From Dictyostelium discoideum (Eukaryota): a stretch of DNA of 64,000 nucleotides. Below are positions 2,473 through 30,423 of the stretch, piece after piece. The translations under genes were made by a program, and so were the position numbers. Under the pieces are notes generated by a model. It worked only from the letters and a program-made list of their open reading frames with translations, did not search any database and had not been told where the DNA came from. Within the stretch, counting starts at the first letter, position 1. Each line of letters opens with the position of its first letter. The DNA lies in contig CM000151.3 of the NCBI GenBank assembly GCA_000004695.1, positions 3,616,001-3,680,000 of the forward strand. The letters run 5' to 3'.

Positions 2473-5400
2473 TCAGTTAATTGTTTGTAATTTCTTTTGT
2501 ACTTTTCTTTGGAATTTTTTTGATTTTCTGTTTTTCACAACCAAGTAAACAACTGATACAATAACTACAGTGGCAAAAGCAATAGAACCAATAATAATAC
2601 CAGCGAGTTGAGCACTTGTTAGTTTTGATTTATTTGATGTACAAATTGAATTATTATCATTATTTGATACTGGTTTACTATCTACTAATACTGAAAAGTC
2701 TGGATCAATAATTATTGATTGTTTATAGTTTGGTATTGTAATACCAATGAATGATTGTGATACTGATGATGTTTGAATTGAGTTCATTTTTGAATCTAAT
2801 AATTGATTTTCAATTGAAGACACTTTTGAATCGATGATTGCTCTTTTAATGAATCTACCATAAAGTGAATGATCATCAATTTGAATTTTAAAGAAGTTTG
2901 AATTATCACCATCGCTTGTATCTCCAAATACTTTTAATGAACAAGTATCTTTGGAAGTTGATGATTCGAATAATGCTGACATTACAAGTTGAAGACTATT
3001 TAATTGTTTTAAAAATTTATATTCTGTAATTTCAATTGTATATTTAATACTTGATGGATTCATTGTTATATTATTATTTGCGAATTGAATAATTGTCGTT
3101 TGATTGAACCATTCTAAAGTTACAGTAATATTGGTTGTTAATGTATTTGTTGATTTTGTATCACCACTTTGAATACTTGTAAAGTATTGACTTTTAATAT
3201 TATTAATTGGTGTATAAATCCATTTATCAAATGTATATAAATTAACTTGATTTGAATTAAAATCTAATTCTCTTAATGATACAATTGAAATCAATGATTT
3301 GAATAAATAATTTGTACTATTTGATGTTTGATTATTGTTATCGATAATTGGTAATTCAGTTGATGGTTGTGATGTATTTGTTGATGGTTGTGGTATAATT
3401 ATAACTTGTGAATTACAATCATTACCAATCCAAGGTGGATAACAAATACATCCACTTGATGAACAAAAACCTTGTTTTGATCCACCACATACTGGTTCAC
3501 CTAAACATGTTTGTGGTTTATTCGTTGGCATTGGTGATGATGTAGGTATTGGTGTTTGTGTTGGTGTTGGATCTATAAAATTATAAACTATTGGATTGAC
3601 AGTGAATTCATTTGATGTGAGTGGTAGGTCTGAAACTTTGATAATGAATGGTTTATCGGTTGGTTTAATATTTTTAATAAAAATTGCACTCCAATAAACT
3701 GTAGTTGGTACTATTTGATTAAAGCTTGAGTCTCCTTCATATTTTACATATACTTGTTGCGTTGAATTGAAACATCTACCTGTTATCCATAACTCGCTAT
3801 CAAATGAATTAAATTTACTGCATTTTGTGATTTGTATTACTTTATTAAAAGTTATATTATTAATTGTATATATAAAAGATAAATTATTTAGTGATTCGCT
3901 TGAATATCCGCTATAATAACCGCCATTATTAATGAATCCATAAACACTGAAAATAATATCTGAATTGTATCCAAATCCTATTGGTAAATCGATAGTACAT
4001 GTATAGGTTGCAGCTGTTTCGTTTATTGAAATAATAGATGATACACATTCAAGTGTTTGTACTTCTATTGTTTCAATATAAACAACTGGATATTGTTTAT
4101 CTTTTAAACCACTTTCAATATCTACTGCTTCAAAGTTGAATGATAAGTATTGAGTACCATCACTATTTTGTTTTAATATTGGTATGAATGAAGTTAAAAT
4201 TGGTGGTGAACTATCGATACCATCATTTTCACCACTACATGTTTTATATACTTTATTTATTGTTGGATCTGATAAATAATTTATAAATACATTTTTAATA
4301 CCATCCATTTCACCAACTACATAAAATTCACCTGAAAAGCCTTGAGTATCATATAATTTAACTTGTGTGATAATATAATTTTGAGATGCACATTTACTTG
4401 GTAAAGTTATATTAATTTGATAATCACCATTAAATTTATCACCTCTTGTTAAATTTTGAGTTGTTAAATGGAATTTATAAGTTGAACTATCCATTTCACC
4501 TCTCACTATAATATCACCATAATCAAAACCATTAATTGGATCATCTATTGTAAATTTCCAACCAAATTCATTTGGTGAATTAATTTTTTCAATATTACTA
4601 AATATTGGTCCATACGCATCGAAATGTTTAGAAACAATAAATAGTTGTGATGATAAAGGAAACATATCATTTGTTATTGAAGATTGATAACCACACATTA
4701 AAAAGAAACTGAGTGGACCAGGTCTAGTGTTTGCAAGAACTGTAAATTTAATTTGATATTTTGAAATTGTTGAATTCCAAGTTGCAAACTTTAAACTATC
4801 GAAAACTATATTAGATTCTGTGGTATTACTATTTAAAATAAAAAGTGAGAATGAAGCTGAAGGATCACTATGGGCTTGAGTACCATTATAATTGAAATAA
4901 ATTATATTATCAACTGATTTATTTGCCACATCAATATAATTTTTTAAAAATGTAATATTTTCTATTAAAACAGGTAATATTGTTGGAGCTTTATAATCTA
5001 TAACTGAAAATGGATTAATTGAAAAATAACTATTTACATAATAAACTTGACTCTTTTTAAAAGTTGAATCTCCAATAGATAAAACTGAAAATCCACGCCC
5101 TTTAAAATCATAAACAATTTCATATATATTATTTTCAGCATCTACCAATGATTCTTGTCTATATATTGCATTTGCATCATCATTAATTTGAATGAAAAGA
5201 TTATAACCAATCTCTTTATATGTTGGTTTTATTTTAATTATTAATAAATGAAATTGTTCAAAAAGGTATATAACTTTACATGATTCTAATTCTAATGGTA
5301 GTAATGATGAATTTATCGCTATTTTTAAAAATATTTTTTAATGTTAGTACTTGTTTGTGTGTGGGGTGTGTGTGTGTGTTATTCAGTAGTAGTTTAGAAT

Positions 5401-10925: not shown

Positions 10926-13900
10926 TCAGTTCATTTTTTGTAATTTGTTTTGTACTTTTCTTTGGAATAAATCTGATTTTCTGTTTTTCACGACCAAGTA
11001 AACAACTGATACAATAACTACAGTGGCAAAAGCAACGGAACCAATAATAATACCAGCGAGTTGAGCACTTGTTAGTTTTGATTTATTTGATGTACAAATT
11101 GAATTATTATCATTATTTGATACTGGTTTACTATCTACTAATACTGAAAAGTCTGGATCAATAATTATTGATTGTTTATAATTTGGTATTGTAATACCAA
11201 TGAATGATTGTGATACTGATGATGTTTGAATTGAGTTCATTTTTGAATCTAATAATTGATTTTCAATTGAAGATACTTTTGAATCGATGATTGCTCTTTT
11301 AATGAATCTACCATAAAGTGAATGGTCATCAATTTGAATTTTAAAGAAGTTTGAATTATCACCATCACTTGTATCTCCAAATTCTTTTAATGAACAAGTA
11401 TCTTTGGAATTTGATGATTCGAATAATGCTGACATTACAAGTTGAAGACTATTTAATTGATTTAAAAATTTATATTCTGTAATTTCAATTGTATATTTAA
11501 TACTTGATGGATTCATTGTTATATTATTATTTGCAAATTGAATGATTGTCGTTTGATTGAACCATTCTAAAGTTACAGTAATATTAGTTGTTAATGTATT
11601 TGTTGATTTTGTATCACCACTTTGAATACTTGTAAAGTATTGACTTTTAATATTATTAATTGGTGTATAAATCCATTTATCAAATGTATATAAATTAACT
11701 TGATTTGAATTAAAATCTAATTCTCTTAATGATACAATTGAAATCAATGATTTGAATAAATAATTTGTACTATTTGATGTTTGATTATTGTTTTCTATAA
11801 TTGGTAATTCAGTTGATGGTTGTGATGTATTTGTTGATGGTTGTGGTATAATTATAACTTGTGAATTACAATCATTACCAATCCAAGGTGGATAACAAAT
11901 ACATCCACTTGATGAACAAAAACCTTGTTTTGATCCACCACATACTGGTTCACCTAAACATGTTTGTGGTTTATTCGTTGGTATTGGTGATGATGTAGGT
12001 ATTGGTGTTTGTGTTGGTGTCTCTGTTGGTGTTTCTGTTGGTGTTTCTGTTGGTGTTTCTGTTGGTGTTAAGGGAATCGTAAAATTATAAACTATAGGAA
12101 TAACAGTGAATTCATTTGATGTGAGTGGATAGTCCGAAACTTTGATAATGAATGGTTTATCAGTTGGTTTAATATTTTTAATAAACATTGCACTCCAATA
12201 AACTTTATTTGGTACTATTATTTGATTAAATCCAGGTTCTCCAAAATATTTTACATATACTTGTTGTTTTGTTGAATTGAAACCTCTACCTGTTATCCAT
12301 AACTCGCTATCACCAGATACAAATTTGCTACAGGTATTAATTTGTATTACTTTGTTTATGGATATATCGCTCATTGAATATATAAAAGATAAACTATTTA
12401 GTGATTCGCTTGAATATCCGCTATAATAACCGCCATTATTAATGAATCCATAAACACTGAAAATAATATCTGAATTGTATCCGAATCCATTTGGTAAATT
12501 GATAGTGCATTTATAGGTTGAAGTTGTTTCATTTATTGAAATAATAGATGATACACATTCAAGTGTTCTTAAATCTGTTGTTTGGATATAAACAATTGGA
12601 TATTGTTTATCTTTTAAACCACTTTCAATATCTACTGCTTCAAAGTTGAATGATAAGTATTGAGTACCATCACTATTTTGTTTTAATATTGGTATGAATG
12701 AAGTTAAAATTGGTGGTGAACTATCGATACCATCATTTTCACCACTACATGTTTTATATACTTTATTTATTGTTGGATCTGATAAATAATTTATAAATAC
12801 ATTTCTAATACCATTAAATCCACTGGATACTGAAAATTCACCTAAATAACCTTGAGTATCATATAATTTAACTTGTGTGATAATATAATTTTGAGATGCA
12901 CATTTACTTGGTAAAGTTATATTAATTTGATAATCACCATTAAATTTATCACCTCTTGTTAAATTTTGAGTTGTTAAATGGAATTTATAAGTTGAACTAT
13001 CCATTTCACCTCTAACTATAATATCAGCATAATCAAAACCATTAATTGGATCATCTATTGTAAATTTCCAACCAAATTCATTTGTTGAATTAACTTTTTC
13101 AATATTACTAAATATTGGTCCATATTCATCGAAATGTTTAGATTCAATAATTAATTGAGAAGATAAAGGTAAGAAATCACTTATTAATGAACTTGAATAA
13201 CCACAAAGTAAAGCAAAACCAAGTGGACCAGGTCTAGTATTTGCAGGAACTGTAAATTTAATTTGATATTTTGAAATTGTTGAATTCCAAATTGAAGTTG
13301 TAATATTATCATAATCTACGACTCCAGTTACTTTAAACTCATGAGATAAAATTAAAAATGAGAAATTAATTGTATCATCTTTAGGTTCTTGAGTACCATT
13401 ATAATTGAAATAAATTATATTATCAACTGATTTATTTGTTACATCAATGTTATTTATTAAATAAGTTACATTACCAATTAAAACTGAAATCATATCAGAA
13501 TATTTAAAATCAAGTTTTAAAAGTGGATCAATTGAATAATATTGAAATGGATTATAAAATTGAGATTGTCTTGAATAAGAATCACCAATATTTAAACTAT
13601 TTAATATACCTTCATGAAAATTTAAAACAGTTTCATATATATTGTTTTCGATATCAGGCATTGAGTCATATCTTAATACTTGATTAACATTATCATTAAT
13701 TTTAATAAAAGTACTGTACCCTTTACTTTGATAAATTGGTTTTATTTTAATCTTAAATAAATAAACTTGATTATATAAATGAGTAGAATTAAATGATTCT
13801 AATTCTAATATTGGTAATGTATTTATATCCACAACTATTATTTATAATAAAATTATTTTAATTAATATAATAATTTTATTAAATAATAATAAAAAATAAA

Positions 13901-20916: not shown

Positions 20917-21454
20917 ATGTCATTATTTAAAATTAAAACTATCACTATTGATCATACTGAAAAAAACATCAGAATTTCAAGGTAATATATTTAATTTAAT
21001 GGTTATAGTTTTTATTTATTTAAATATTAATTTTTTTATTTTTTTTTTATTTTTACTTTTTATTTATTTATTTGTTTATTTTTATTTTTTTATTACAGAT
21101 CAGTTACTATTAATGAAAATAGTGATAGATATATTTGTATACCAGATGAAATTAGTAATGAAGAAAGTGTTGAAATTTTAGATAGTGTTGAGAATGGTTC
21201 AACATTATTACACTCTGAGAAACCATCATTTCCAGAAGATTTAAAATATTTTAAAAATAAAAAATTTAAAATTCAAATGGTTGAAGGTAATCATATTGTT
21301 GGTAAATTAATTGAATCAAGTAATGAAACTAAATCAATTACTTTAAATGTTGAATCTTATCATTCTTTTAAAAGTGATAATTCATTACCAAATGGTATGA
21401 TTAAATTAGAACATTCAAAAATTTTATCATACTTTTTATTATCATCTGATAATG

Positions 21455-21553
<99 letters not shown>

Positions 21554-23205
21554 TTAACAATGATGATTTCTATATTAAAAATAATTGTGAAAGAATTACA
21601 AAAATTGAAATTAATAATAATAAGGTTAAAAGAGATATAATTGTAAATTATAATATTCATATTCAAAAACATGGTGCAGAATTTGGTCATTTTATTCACT
21701 TGGTTAAAGGTTTAAAATGTGGTAAACAATTATATTGTAAAGCAAATTTAAAAGATGATTTACCAATTACAATTGTAACAGAATATAAATGGAAACCATT
21801 TATAGATATTGGTTCAAGTGATAATGTACAACTTAGAATTAAAACATTGGCTGAAAAGAAAAAAGTGATTTATAAAATTGATAATTTGAAATGTTATAAT
21901 AATATCACAACTAATATTCAAATTAATAAATTTCAAACAACTGCAAATCGTGCAATATTGGTTTATCCAGGTGGTCCACTCCAAGTATCAATTTACTTTA
22001 AAAATAATTCAAAATTATTTTTAACTAAAACTAGATGTAAATTAATTCAAAATGATTTAATTGAAAATGAAAATGAAAATAAAGAACAAACTGATGATGA
22101 CGATGAAGATGATGACGAAGATGAAGATGAGGATAGTGATGAGGGTGACGATATTGCTTTTAATTCTCCACCATCTGAAATACCACCTAGTATCAGCAGT
22201 GTCAGTAGTAATAGAAATAATAATAATATTAACATTAAAACTAGTGCAAATCCAATAAGAAGAAATGTTAATTCGGGTTTATTCGCTTGCCAATTATTAG
22301 GTATTGTTAAACCAAATTCAATTGGTATTATTTCATTTCTTATTCCAACTGAAAAATTAAAACTTTTTAAAGATATTGGTCATCAAGCATTATTTGAAAC
22401 AAGAGGAAAAGAATCAAATATTAATCAAATTAAAGTATCAAGTGTTTTCACAATATTAGAGACTGAAACATTAAATAAAATTACTTATCAAGTTGCAAAT
22501 ATTAGTCAACATTCAATTAAACTCATTATTTACACTGGTTATGGTATTATTGGTACTGAAACACCATTGAATGAGTACACCAAAGTATTAATAACACCAA
22601 CTATCAATGAAAATAATAACAACAACAACAATAGCAATAGAGTCATTGAAAAGATTGATGAAACTTTATATTTAATTCAAAATTGTGTTGGTTTTTCAAT
22701 TGTAAACTTTGAATTATACAATTCAAAATGTAAACAATTAATGACAAATTCAAGATTACCACAAGATGCATTGAATCTTTTAAATAATAATGGTATTTCA
22801 ATTACATATTCTCCAAATTTATTTAAATGTCATGATTTAACACATTTGGGTAGAAGTGCACAAGATTCATTATTCAAATTTTTAGGTTCAATAACATTGG
22901 AAGATAAAACATCATCATACTTTAATAAACCATATTTACCAGCTCCACTTACAAATTATTTATTTGATCAAACAATTTCATCAAAATCCTCTGGTACTAG
23001 TGTACTCTCAAATATGGTTAGTTGTAATCCTCGTGCTTTAAAATTAGGTTTATTTGATAGTGAAAATCCACAATCACAACAAAATGATAAACATAACAAC
23101 ACCAACATTCCAAGTAGTTCAAAATATAGTAGCAGTTTTATTGAGGGCACTTTTAGTTCAAGAGAAGACAATCATTCAAAAAAGTCTTCACGCATCATAT
23201 CTTAA
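20917..23205 (+). CDS. Hypothetical protein of about 724 aa with a poly-Asn tract, a poly-Asp/Glu tract, and a possible arrestin-C-like beta-sandwich motif. 2 exons, 20917..20981 and 21099..23205.
   Basis: Exon 1 MSLFKIKTITIDHTEKNIRIS, donor caag|GTAATA, acceptor ttattacag|AT. Exon 2 is in frame with ORF 21277..23205. The motif ILVYPGGPLQVSIYFKNNSKLFLTKTRCKLIQ resembles arrestin C-domain strands; this is weak. Low-complexity N33 and DDDDEDDDEDEDEDSDEGDD tracts. Confidence 0.45.
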
Positions 23206-23219
23206 ATGAAAATCAAAAC

Positions 23220-23252
<33 letters not shown>

Positions 23253-23321
23253 GTTTTAAAAATAATATAATTTACTGATTCTTTTTTTATTTTTTTTTTG
23301 GGGAGGTAGAGGGGTTTTGAA

Positions 23322-23957
23322 CTAGTTTTTTTTTTTTTTTATTAATTCTATTATTGATTTTTCTTCAAAATGTGGGCACATTGATTTCGGAGTTTGTAAA
23401 ATCTTGTCAAATTGACAGGAGGACCAATCTGATTGACAGTTTTCTTTACATAGAAAAAGTTTAACATCACCATTATTTGGATCACATAGAATTTTTTGGA
23501 AAGGATTTCCACTTTTATCATTGTTTATTGAACATGTTTCATTTTTATAAGTGATAATTAAAGCATGATCTTTACATTGTTTTTCTCTATTAATAATTTC
23601 ATTATCTAATAATTGAATTTCATTACAATATTCATGGTTATTACTTTTTGGTATTGATAATTGATGTTTATTTTCATGTAAAATAAAGTAAAATGAAATT
23701 TCACCTTCTGGAATACAAACATTTAATTCATTAGTATAAACTAAATTTTCATCAAATGTTTGAGTAATTATTTTATTTCCAGTTTTATTATTACATCCAA
23801 TTATTTCAACTTTTCCATTTCTTAAATCTTTATTATAAAATTTAATTGCTTCTGGTTTTCCTTCACAGTTTTTATTATCATATATAATTTCTACCAATTC
23901 AAGACAATTGATATTATTAAATAATATAAATAATAAAAATAAAATTATTAATTTCAT
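23322..23957 (-). CDS. Secreted cysteine-rich protein (signal peptide plus about 16 Cys), paralogous to the next gene
   Basis: MKLIILFLLFILFNNINC signal peptide. The mature N-terminus LELVEIIYDNKNCEGKPEAIKF parallels LEYIQAMYDNKDCKNTPISIQ of the 24497..25351 protein. Single exon. Confidence 0.5.
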   Translation of the reverse strand: MKLIILFLLFILFNNINCLELVEIIYDNKNCEGKPEAIKFYNKDLRNGKVEIIGCNNKTGNKIITQTFDENLVYTNELNVCIPEGEISFYFILHENKHQLSIPKSNNHEYCNEIQLLDNEIINREKQCKDHALIITYKNETCSINNDKSGNPFQKILCDPNNGDVKLFLCKENCQSDWSSCQFDKILQTPKSMCPHFEEKSIIELIKKKKN

Positions 23958-24156
23958 TTTATTATTAATATTTCTATTTTTAATATAAAAAATTAACAAA
24001 AAAAAAAAAAAATTATTATTCTATTGATAGAATAAAAAAAAAAAAAAAAAAAATAATAATAATATAGTTAGGGGGAGAGGGGGTATAATCAAAAAACTAA
24101 TTATAAATAACCACACCAATAAATAATTTTTATTAAAAAAATAAAAAATTATACAT

Positions 24157-24405
24157 ATCACCCGTCCAACAAAAAAAAAAATGAATTAATTTCAAAAAGA
24201 ATTCAGACACTTTTTTAATTTTTTTGGTAATTATAAATTTAGGTAAAGAAAGCTTATTTCTAATCCATTTTTATTTTGGAAAATACCAATGAAATCCTCT
24301 TCTCTTCAAGATTTTATTTTTCAAAAAAAATATAGTCCACAAACACCATATTAAAAAAATGTATGCAAAAGTTCGACAGTTTTTTTAGACTGTTGGACGG
24401 GTGTA
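24157..24405. mobile_element. Candidate non-autonomous DNA-transposon remnant (MITE-like): about 250-bp element bounded by 12-13 bp perfect terminal inverted repeats
   Basis: CACCCGTCCAAC at 24159-24170 and its exact reverse complement GTTGGACGGGTG at 24392-24403. The interior has no ORF and a higher GC content than the flanks. It sits between two paralogous genes. Confidence 0.3.
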
Positions 24406-24496
24406 ATAAATAAAAAAAAAAAAAAATAAATAATTCAAGGTTTAAATTAAAAGTATTAAAATTTTAATATTACTAGTTTTTTATTTTTTATTTTAT

Positions 24497-25351
24497 TTAA
24501 AATAATATTAAAATTAATAATGATAAACTAATTAAAAGGAAGAAAGATACGTATATTTTTTGGGCATTGCTTTTGCCAGTAGTTGAGGCACCTCCACTAT
24601 TTCCTGCATTTGATGTAGCTCCACCATTTCCAGAAGCGGCTCCAGTTGCTCCACTACCACCAGTTGCTGAGGTACCATTATTTCCAGTACCACCACCACC
24701 AGTAGCACCAGAAGAAGAAGATGTACTTGAAGTATCAACTTTACCATCAATTTTAATTAAATCTTGAATATTTTTTGATTTAATATTTGGACAGGATGAA
24801 ATACTTTTTAATTCTTTATCAAATACACAACCACTGACCCCAGAAGCTTTACGGCAATCAGATGGGCAATTATAACGTTTTACAACATTTCCATTACAAA
24901 GATAACGATTGAAATAACCGTTTGATTGTGGACCAACACATGCACCATTTAAATAAGAATTTAATAAAATGTTTTCACAATCATCATCGGCAAATTGAAC
25001 CAATTCTGAACAGTATCCATTAATTCCTGAAACATTTGCATTTTCATTTAAAAACATTTGAGCCAATGAACCTGTTAAACAATAATTTACATCTTGATCA
25101 TATGCTGATGGAGTTTTTGAACTACAATCACTTGGTGATTTAATACCATATGAAATTGTTACTCTTTTACTTGATTGTGGTACAACATAAATTCCTTTTG
25201 CACATTGTGATGATGATTGAATTGAAATTGGTGTATTTTTACAATCTTTATTATCATACATTGCTTGAATATATTCTAATCCATTTACAACATTTTTAAA
25301 AATACAATAATTTATTACTGTAAATAATAATATAATTTTTAAAATTTTCAT
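24497..25351 (-). CDS. Secreted cysteine-rich protein with a Ser/Gly/Thr-rich linker and a C-terminal hydrophobic tail (probable GPI anchor); ponticulin-like/prespore-surface type (hypothesis)
   Basis: Signal peptide MKILKIILLFTVINYCIF, a Cys-rich core, ...TSSTSSSSGATGGGGTGNNGTSATGGSGATGAASGNGG..., then KIYVSFFLLISLSLLILILF* (a hydrophobic C-terminus with no basic stop-transfer, typical of a GPI signal). Confidence 0.5.
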   Translation of the reverse strand: MKILKIILLFTVINYCIFKNVVNGLEYIQAMYDNKDCKNTPISIQSSSQCAKGIYVVPQSSKRVTISYGIKSPSDCSSKTPSAYDQDVNYCLTGSLAQMFLNENANVSGINGYCSELVQFADDDCENILLNSYLNGACVGPQSNGYFNRYLCNGNVVKRYNCPSDCRKASGVSGCVFDKELKSISSCPNIKSKNIQDLIKIDGKVDTSSTSSSSGATGGGGTGNNGTSATGGSGATGAASGNGGATSNAGNSGGASTTGKSNAQKIYVSFFLLISLSLLILILF

Positions 25352-25807
25352 TTTAATATGGGGTTCTATTTTATAATATAAAAAAAAATAATATAAAATA
25401 AAAAAAAAAAAAAAAAAAAATAAAAGTTAATAGAAAAAAAAAAAAAAAAAAAAAAAAAACAAAAAAAAGATAGAAAAAAAAAAAAAATAATAAAAAAAAT
25501 AATTAAACAAAAAAAAAAAAAAAAAAAAAATTATTATAATTTGGGTTTTAACTTTACATAGATATATTTTTACATATAAAAAATTAACTTCCACCCACAC
25601 ACCCACATTCTCAATAGATTCAAAAACACCTAACCACAAAAAAAAAAAAAAAAAAAAATAATATAAAAAAAATTAAAATTAAAAATAGAAAAAGACAAAG
25701 GGTAGTATAATTTATTGAAAAAATAAGAAAATAATTATTTAATAAATTATTTTATATTTATTTTTTATATTGATTTGATTTATTTTTATTTTTTTTTATT
25801 TTTTTTA

Positions 25808-27317
<1,510 letters not shown>

Positions 27318-27363
27318 TTATATTTTTTTTTGTTTTAACTGAAAAGAATATTTAATTAAGGTT

Positions 27364-27397
<34 letters not shown>

Positions 27398-28878
27398 TCT
27401 TTTAAAAAAAAAAATAAAAAAAATAAAAAAAAAGGTTCGGAGATCATTTTTTTAAAAATATTTATATCTCCCACATATTTACACCTATAAAAATAATGAC
27501 CCACCACAACAAAGAAAGAATAGATCCAAATTAAACTCTAATAATAATTTTGATCTCCCAATGAGCATAATAAAAATTAAAAAATCTATGATACTTGAAA
27601 ATAAAATCTGTTTCATGTTTGTATTATGGAAAAAAAAATTTAAAACATATTCTCTGAGGGTGTTTTGTGGTGTTTTAACAAATACTATAAAATTAAATTC
27701 AATGATAAATAAAATAAAAAAAATGGAAAAAATATGCAAGTTATTAAAAAAAAACAAGGAACGGAAAGGAAATTAAAAAAATACCCCCTTTTTCCAAATG
27801 GGGAAAAGGTCAACACTAAAACAGAAAATTTAAATAAAGAAATTTTAATTTTTATTAACATTTTTTTATTTTTTTTTAATTTTAAATTACACTATTTTAA
27901 ATTTTACTATTTTGGGTGGCGAAAAACGAAAAAAAAAAAAAAAAATGAAATTAACCCCACCAAAAATAAAAACACTAAAAAACAAAAAAAATCTAAGATT
28001 CAACATGTAATATTTTTGTTATTTTTAATTATTTTTATTGTTATTATTATTAGTTTTTTTTAATTTTGTTTTTATTTTAATAATTGTGTTGGTAAAAAAG
28101 GCTTAGAATTAATATTGAGATGGTCTTTAATCTTTTATCTTTTAAATAAACTTTTAAGAGTATTTACCATTTTTTTTTTTGGTCATTTTAAACCAATTAA
28201 TATATTAACTTTGTTTTTTAATTAAAGTAATATAAAAGAGTATTTAAAAAAAAAAGGTCGTTTATTGTTCTGGTGAAATTTTTTAAATAATTTTTTAATG
28301 ATATATTGTTTTTTTAATAAAATAGTAAATAGAACCAACTGAATTGAGGTTATTGTGTGAAAAATAATATTTTTTCTTCCTATTTAACGAAAAGTAAAAA
28401 ATAGGCCCATATATTAATTAAAAAGAGTAATTAATTAATTTAAACATCAAAAACTGTAAATTAGAAAGAAGAAGAAAAAGAATAGGAAAAGGGAAAGTTT
28501 GTTAATAATTTTTACAAATATTACCACTTGGATTTTTTTTTTGAACATTAGATATAGGGTACTTTCTATCAAAGATGTCTTAACTATTTTTTATTTTTTA
28601 TTTTTTTTTTTTATTTTTAATTTTTTTTTTTTGTTTAATTATTTTTAAGAATAAACAATAATAAAAAAAAACAAAATTATTGTAATTTAGATTTTAACTT
28701 TATATTGACATATTTTAAAAATTGACTTTCATGCACACCACACTCTCAAAAGATTCAAAAACACCTAACAAAATTTAAAAAATAAAAATGAAAATTAAAA
28801 ATAGAAAAGACAAACAGAAGTTTGGTTTATTGAAAAAATAAAAAAAATAATTATTAATCAATTATTTTTTTTTTTTTT

Positions 28879-30423
<1,545 letters not shown>

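Follow-up and report, generated by a model that had tools for sequence, protein, structure and literature searches.

The window, that is, the whole 64-kb stretch of DNA from chromosome 2 of Dictyostelium discoideum AX4 analyzed here, contains two tandem genes for Cys-rich secreted-type proteins of 211 and 284 amino acids, and in the spacer between them lies a short non-coding element bounded by inverted repeats (Table 1). The two flanking genes had been taken for paralogues on a sequence-only reading of this DNA, and this proved right: they are true but distant paralogues, with 28% identity and an E-value of 7e-14. The 284-aa gene has its stop codon 93 bp before the element, and 201 bp separate the element from the ATG of the 211-aa gene. 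Two AATAAA signals are present within these 93 bp, and the element probably lies outside both transcripts. Moreover, each of the flanking proteins has two gene identifiers in AX4. These paired names suggest that the window belongs to a region present twice in AX4, which we take to be the known duplication of chromosome 2, and the element should therefore also occur twice there.

Table 1. The inserted element, its junctions and its two flanking genes, with positions in the window.
Feature	Position	Strand	Basis
Flanking gene downstream of the element, 211 aa, DDB_G0272891/DDB_G0273987, Cys-rich secreted-type protein	23322..23957	-	
Promoter-proximal conserved block ahead of the 211-aa gene, outside the element, TTTATTGGTGTGGTTATTTATAATTAG...GATTATACCCCCTCTCCCCCTAAC	24067..24123	-	alignments
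Remnant ATAT of the second copy of the target-site duplication	24155..24158	-	alignments
Non-coding insertion with inverted repeats at its ends, AX4-type allele	24159..24403 (245 bp)	.	inverted ends and block missing from empty sites
Terminal inverted repeat, left end, CACCCGTCCAACA	24159..24171	+	
Subterminal hairpin CGACAGT-TTTTTTAG-ACTGTTG, specific to the AX4/ACTFIT allele	24374..24395	+	sequence, alignments
Terminal inverted repeat, right end, TGTTGGACGGGTG	24391..24403	+	
Copy of the target-site duplication, ATTTATTA, one substitution from ATATATTA of ACTFIW/ACTFIR	24404..24411	-	alignments
Flanking gene upstream of the element, 284 aa, DDB_G0272586/DDB_G0273989, paralogue of the 211-aa gene	24497..25351	-	

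In the window sequence, the two terminal inverted repeats (TIRs) are perfect reverse complements over 13 of 13 nucleotides. The exact reverse-complement ends about 230 bp apart in an (A/T)n region, which had first been noticed from the letters alone, are thus real, though 13 nt long rather than 12. The 12-mer of the repeat occurs at only two places within the 64-kb window, even when one mismatch is allowed; in dinucleotide shuffles it was matched 0.02 times on average, and two matches were obtained in 0 of 100 shuffles. We also scanned the window for perfect inverted 11-mers with a GC content of at least 45% and a distance of 30-1000 nt, and found four pairs, that of the element included. Exact inverted termini of 13 nt are far beyond chance.

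The interior of the element had been described as comparatively GC-containing, and the measured values agree, with 21-27% GC where the spacer to the left and right has 6-9%. The second small palindrome pointed out in the same reading also exists. It forms a hairpin of seven pairs, one of which is G.T, overlaps the inner part of the right TIR and carries the GTTSGAC core of the TIRs once more; according to the alignments it is not present in the version of the element carried by ACTFIW and ACTFIR. Inside the 13-nt ends we detected no inverted symmetry: the element scored 174 against its own reverse complement while the mean of shuffles was 173, and a foldback or long-repeat element is ruled out on this ground. 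The longest open reading frame wholly inside the element encodes 23 aa and the longest one that overlaps it and starts inside encodes 25 aa, so no frame of more than 25 aa overlaps the element. In size (245 bp in AX4 and 204-207 bp in ACTFIR and ACTFIW) and in being non-coding, the element falls within the usual description of a miniature inverted-repeat transposable element (MITE), which is under about 800 bp.

We then compared the orthologous locus in eight further assemblies, which were found through the flanking protein and members of its cluster. They are D. discoideum ACTFIT (L001), ACTFIW (L006) and ACTFIR (L007), the latter two also labelled D. discoideum, D. cf. discoideum ACTFIZ (L002) and ACTFIY (L008), D. 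dimigraforme (L003), D. citrinum (L004) and D. firmibasis (L005). The tandem gene pair is common to all eight assemblies and AX4. Among the nine loci compared, the element is carried by AX4, ACTFIT, ACTFIW and ACTFIR only, and it is missing from the orthologous spacer in both D. cf. discoideum assemblies, D. dimigraforme, D. citrinum and D. firmibasis. The spacer is 539 bp long in AX4, about 500 bp in ACTFIW and 273-351 bp in the five assemblies without the element, whose spacers are about 190-265 bp shorter. The block missing from the alignments is exactly the TIR-bounded block, and the inverted repeats therefore stand exactly at the boundaries of the insertion, as in a MITE, these boundaries being given by the alignment gap in the five empty sites. 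In none of these five did we detect anything left of the interior. The comparison with empty sites is drawn across AT-rich spacers that are several percent diverged and in which indels are common.

The ACTFIT copy (10949-11193 of its locus) is identical to that of AX4 at 245 of 245 positions, while the ACTFIW and ACTFIR copies, of 207 bp (3931-4137 of the ACTFIW locus) and 204 bp respectively, are diverged and stand at the same position. In a neighbour-joining tree of the two flanking coding sequences (CDS), AX4, ACTFIT, ACTFIW and ACTFIR form one clade and the five non-carriers fall outside it. Since all four carriers belong to one clade, a single insertion event is enough to explain the distribution.

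The clearest view of the target site is offered by ACTFIW and ACTFIR. In both, a perfect 8-bp direct repeat, ATATATTA, abuts the two ends of the element, exactly where a duplication made by a transposase is expected; with the caret marking the junction, the sequence is ...TTTTATATATTA^CACCCCGTCCAAC...GTTGGAC(T/G)GGTG^ATATATTATTATGTAATAT. When mixed A/T-only 8-mers at comparable spacing were drawn from the same Dictyostelium sequences, a match at 8 of 8 positions was seen in 0.36% of trials. The duplication in these two assemblies is common by descent and thus counts as one independent observation of a target-site duplication (TSD) of fixed length, which is a further property of MITEs. The closest empty site, that of ACTFIZ, reads ...TTTTGTTATTA-AAATGTATAAT, in which a relative of the 8-mer (GTTATTA) occurs once and the same sequence continues downstream.

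In AX4 and ACTFIT the duplication is degenerate. In gene orientation, the AX4 junctions read ...ATTTATTA^CACCC...GGGTG^ATATGTATAAT and show no duplication. At the remnant of the second copy, AX4 is without 8 nt (ATTATTAT) relative to ACTFIW and ACTFIR, an absence that the aligned sequences suggest to be a deletion. On the plus strand, the 5-mers at the AX4 junctions differ (CATAT vs TAATA), and no matching unit of 2-4 nt was found at both junctions of AX4 (...TATTA^CACCC and GGGTG^ATAT...). TA or TTAA flanks, which had been proposed as a check of the transposon idea, do not occur at the junctions; instead, the duplicated unit is of 8 bp and has decayed in AX4. Elements that make no duplication (Helitron/Helentron, IS607 and Crypton-type) were considered on AX4 alone and were dropped given the 8-bp duplication in ACTFIW and ACTFIR.

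The element has changed more than its surroundings. Between AX4 and ACTFIW, it is 88% identical in the aligned columns, as compared with 94-95.5% for the flanking spacer and 95.3% for the flanking CDS. About 95 nt at one end of the element in AX4 and about 55 nt in ACTFIW could not be aligned; in other words, the two alleles are about 12% different where they can be aligned and in addition are separated by about 40 bp of indels or rearrangement at one end. The left TIR reads GTTGGACTGGTG in ACTFIW and is unchanged in ACTFIR, while the right TIR has one extra C (CACCCCGTCCAAC) in both. Diverging faster than the flanking spacer and CDS, the element shows no sign of selection. We rejected independent insertion or gene conversion as the origin of the two alleles, for ACTFIW and ACTFIR diverge from AX4 by 5-9% over the whole locus.

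Inverted ends, a TSD and empty sites form the combination by which a cut-and-paste DNA transposon is recognized, and having no coding capacity, the element is MITE-like. We therefore consider, with a probability of roughly 0.7, that a short, non-autonomous transposon of this class II type was inserted here once and that the element is its fossil. That a transposon was inserted here is well supported, and the earlier description of a MITE-like inserted unit was borne out by its absence from five outgroup assemblies, the 8-bp TSD in ACTFIW and ACTFIR, and the lack of coding capacity. A possible course of events is as follows. A transposase supplied in trans by another element would have recognized the 13-bp inverted ends and made staggered cuts, 8 bp apart, at ATATATTA in the intergenic spacer of the tandem paralogues, and gap repair would have doubled these 8 bp. 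This single insertion would date from an ancestor shared by D. discoideum sensu stricto (AX4 and ACTFIT) and the lineage of ACTFIW and ACTFIR, at a time when the two D. cf. discoideum lineages had already branched off. Afterwards, neutral-like decay has left uncompensated TIR changes in ACTFIW and ACTFIR, and in AX4 one copy of the TSD has a substitution and the other would have been mostly deleted. The element is presumably immobile at present. It is an ordinary feature, namely an old and decaying non-autonomous insertion that is fixed in the D. discoideum clade.

The strongest competitor of this reading, which we nevertheless regard as rather improbable, is an insertion made without a transposase, for example filler DNA from double-strand break repair or a copy of genomic, mitochondrial or plasmid DNA, whose inverted ends and repeated 8-mer would be coincidental or by-products of repair. 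Such an origin agrees with the single copy seen, with the absence of any known superfamily motif at the termini, and with the AX4 junctions, where there is no clean duplication and where removal of exactly 245 bp leaves the same length as the empty site of ACTFIZ. However, repair capture predicts neither inverted ends nor a duplication, and both are found: a perfect, GC-rich inverted repeat of 13 nt located exactly at both junctions would hardly arise by chance, and ATATATTA is doubled exactly at both junctions in ACTFIW and ACTFIR (p ~0.004).

The position of the element ahead of the 211-aa gene raises the question of regulation. The promoter-proximal block of this gene (Table 1) is identical between AX4 and ACTFIW and is largely kept in D. 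cf. discoideum, which is without the element; it is therefore older than the insertion and is not a promoter belonging to the element. This block is itself a candidate cis-regulatory element amid a fast-changing A/T spacer. Moreover, a DUSE-like motif, ACCACACC, near or upstream of the element is conserved in species without the element, and we ruled it out as a component of the insertion because it is also found where the element is absent.

It is very unlikely that the element is a cis-regulatory module of the 211-aa gene, that is, a "promoter palindrome", whether original or co-opted. Its distance of 201 bp from the ATG and its adjoining the conserved promoter block are what one would expect of such a module, but in five assemblies the same gene pair works in its absence, the conserved block lies between it and the ATG and is older than the insertion, the half-sites are 220 bp apart and decaying in ACTFIW and ACTFIR, and the surrounding spacer is better conserved than the element. 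The earlier suggestion that the element may affect expression likewise found no support, as nothing has disrupted the conserved promoter block between element and ATG, and the flanks have diverged more slowly than the element. It had also been suggested that the element may have mediated the duplication of the two genes. This is refuted: the same pair is present in 5 of 5 element-free assemblies, which makes the duplication older than the element and not caused by it, and the paralogues are only 28% identical. Two tempting ideas are thereby removed, one of a palindrome that regulates DDB_G0272891 and the other of a palindrome that caused the tandem duplication.

MITE-derived hairpin RNAs are known in other organisms, and the element might accordingly be a structured non-coding RNA gene or a miRNA-type hairpin precursor, perhaps born from a transposon, with a GC-rich closing helix of 13 bp. 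Both strands do fold better than their shuffles (z-scores of -4.0 and -4.3), and the GC content of the interior resembles exons or RNA genes rather than spacer. The z-score, however, stems from the terminal helix, and the centroid structure of the plus strand consists of almost nothing else. The folding energy of the element, -0.20 to -0.23 kcal/mol/nt, is far weaker than the -0.5 to -0.7 kcal/mol/nt of D. discoideum miRNA hairpins (PMC6161686 Table S1), and none of the 24 mature miRNAs in that table maps to the element, a comparison in which 17 older miRNAs are not included; the element thus has neither the energy of at most -0.5 kcal/mol/nt nor the known mature miRNA of a miRNA hairpin. Furthermore, the changes in the helix of ACTFIW and ACTFIR (the extra C, and G to T) are uncompensated, the ACTFIW version folds less well (z-scores of -1.6 and -3.2), the element diverges more than the flanking spacer, T-runs on both strands would argue against RNA polymerase III, and the nearby ACCACACC is outside the insertion, since it is found in element-free species.

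Searches for known RNA families agree with this. In a search of the spacer against Rfam 15, which includes Dictyostelium SRP RNA, snoRNAs and spliceosomal RNAs, nothing was found in the element at E-values up to 10. No Rfam match at gathering score and, by ARAGORN, no tRNA were found in the whole window. The element thus shows no sign of being an RNA gene, and we give this explanation as little credit as that of a regulatory module. A covariance-model match similar to SNORD43 was seen at 24515-24569 (+), antisense to the 3' end of the CDS of the 284-aa gene, with 18.6 bits (gathering score 45) and an E-value of 0.41, and it is most likely due to chance.

Finally, it is hardly conceivable that the block is ancestral spacer DNA deleted independently in the element-free lineages: AT-rich spacers here do often gain and lose sequence, but the tree would demand at least three deletions (in ACTFIY, in ACTFIZ and in the more distant species), all with end points at the TIR boundaries, and an interior remnant is seen in 0 of the 5 element-free assemblies.

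Given that the element is read as a transposon insertion, we compared it with known groups of DNA transposons. An 8-bp TSD combined with short repeats that start with 5'-CA is typical of hAT elements, and the usual terminal motif of hAT is YARNG. The element has the 8-bp TSD (in ACTFIW and ACTFIR) and TIRs whose length of 13 bp fits, but its CACCC termini agree with this motif in the first two bases (CA) only. The TSD, the short repeats and the 5'-CA ends suggest a hAT-like origin; as the CACCC terminus departs from the motif beyond CA, this assignment is tentative. Compared with hAT MITEs (maize Ds1-type and Drosophila 'Mar', PMC3517528), the element is likewise short and non-coding, has a length of a few hundred bp and sits in an AT-rich spacer near genes. 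It shares with them short TIRs (10-25 bp in that group) that start with 5'-CA, as well as the 8-bp TSD. It differs in its CACCC termini and in a TSD that only one of the two allelic lineages has preserved intact.

Other groups fit less well. The element had been called DDT-like, and in fact it has the same host and an AT-rich target in common with Tdd-4, Tdd-5 and DDT (Ginger2/TDD), which are cut-and-paste class II elements with a preference for AT-rich targets. In that group, the termini are TGTNR, the TIRs measure 45-300 bp (260 bp in Tdd-4) and the duplications 4-5 bp (PMC2836005), whereas the element has CACCC termini, TIRs of 13 bp and a TSD of 8 bp. All three features are therefore off, and neither Tdd-4 or Tdd-5 nor DDT-A, DDT-B or DDT-S matches it. 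As for thug-S and thug-T, which are named DNA-transposon-type repeats of D. discoideum and had likewise been suggested as relatives, we could compare them by description only: thug-S is a multicopy DNA transposon with an intron that yields miRNA-like RNAs (PMC4894637), is apparently larger and gene-carrying, and is not obviously a short element of this TIR kind. Stowaway (Tc1/mariner) and Tourist (PIF/Harbinger) MITEs resemble the element in size, in being non-coding, in TIRs of about 10-15 bp and in their location near genes. They differ from it in their duplications of TA and TWA, neither of which occurs at its junctions, where the unit is 8 bp. Thus the TA, TTAA or TWA that Tc1/mariner, piggyBac and PIF/Harbinger elements would leave at both junctions is absent.

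We further searched for other copies and for a possible partner. A second copy was found neither in the 64-kb window nor in 21 kb more of D. discoideum and about 200 kb of its relatives, a sample too small to bound the copy number. This total includes 127 kb (six loci) obtained via the multi-copy major actin protein, and because only 21 kb of these 127 kb are from D. discoideum proper, they give no useful bound either. BLAST and nhmmer searches with the element against the window and all the orthologous and actin loci returned orthologous copies only, and fuzzy searches with the TIRs in the window and the fetched loci revealed no inverted pairs elsewhere. The TIR pair had zero matches in metagenome contigs (gaps of 206-236 and 165-195) and in the GTDB genomes and IMG/VR (gap of 206-236), all of them collections without Dictyostelium genomes. 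As no second copy was seen, a repeated family, which is the defining property of a MITE, lacks support, and membership of the element in such a family is not established. No autonomous partner with the same termini was present in the window and the Dictyostelium loci examined. In the literature, a full-text search for the TIR sequence retrieved only unrelated primers, and searches on thug, MITEs and hAT elements of Dictyostelium brought up no description of such an element.

The only transposase gene seen in the loci examined is in ACTFIZ (90-1394 of its locus, minus strand). It encodes a PIF/Harbinger-type protein of 434 aa (PF13359, DDE_Tnp_4), adjoins a truncated copy of an amine-oxidase gene and is absent at that position in the other assemblies. 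Repeated "ATAACTC" motifs are present upstream of the gene, and no terminus similar to that of the element was found within 600 bp of it.

To our knowledge, the DNA transposons in the classical catalogue of D. discoideum repeats are Tdd/DDT (Ginger2-type) and thug elements only. It is possible, though we would not count on it, that the element represents a hAT-like family with short repeats and an 8-bp TSD which lies outside this catalogue and was active in a recent ancestor of the species complex. If so, a source of transposase of hAT type, or of another type with an 8-bp stagger, either resident or horizontally acquired, would have existed that is undescribed for D. discoideum. The locus thus offers a hint that DNA transposons with short repeats and an 8-bp TSD were once active in a host whose described DNA transposons are of another type. 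The finding has little value for biology at large and modest value for Dictyostelium genomics. More directly, the element serves as a clean, dated presence/absence marker, which places ACTFIW and ACTFIR on the side of AX4 and sets them off from both D. cf. discoideum assemblies.

Several other observations were made at the locus. ACTFIW and ACTFIR are 4.7-6.3% different from AX4 in the two flanking CDS and 5-9% over the locus, for which the whole loci were compared with positions 21000-28500 of the window. The D. cf. discoideum assembly ACTFIY is 6.5% different from AX4, so ACTFIW and ACTFIR are almost as far away; judged by these distances, they resemble cryptic lineages of their own more than strains of the species to which AX4 belongs. 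The deposited gene models are in conflict: the 211-aa gene is given as a protein of 200 aa with an intron in ACTFIT (11395-12095 of its locus), and in ACTFIR (3001-4968) both paralogues and the element-bearing spacer are fused into one model of 452 aa. In addition, two tandem amine-oxidase (PF01593) paralogues are located at 25808-27034 and 28879-30084 on the minus strand of the window, with about 91% identity at the DNA level, and the number of copies or fragments of this gene varies among the Dictyostelium assemblies.
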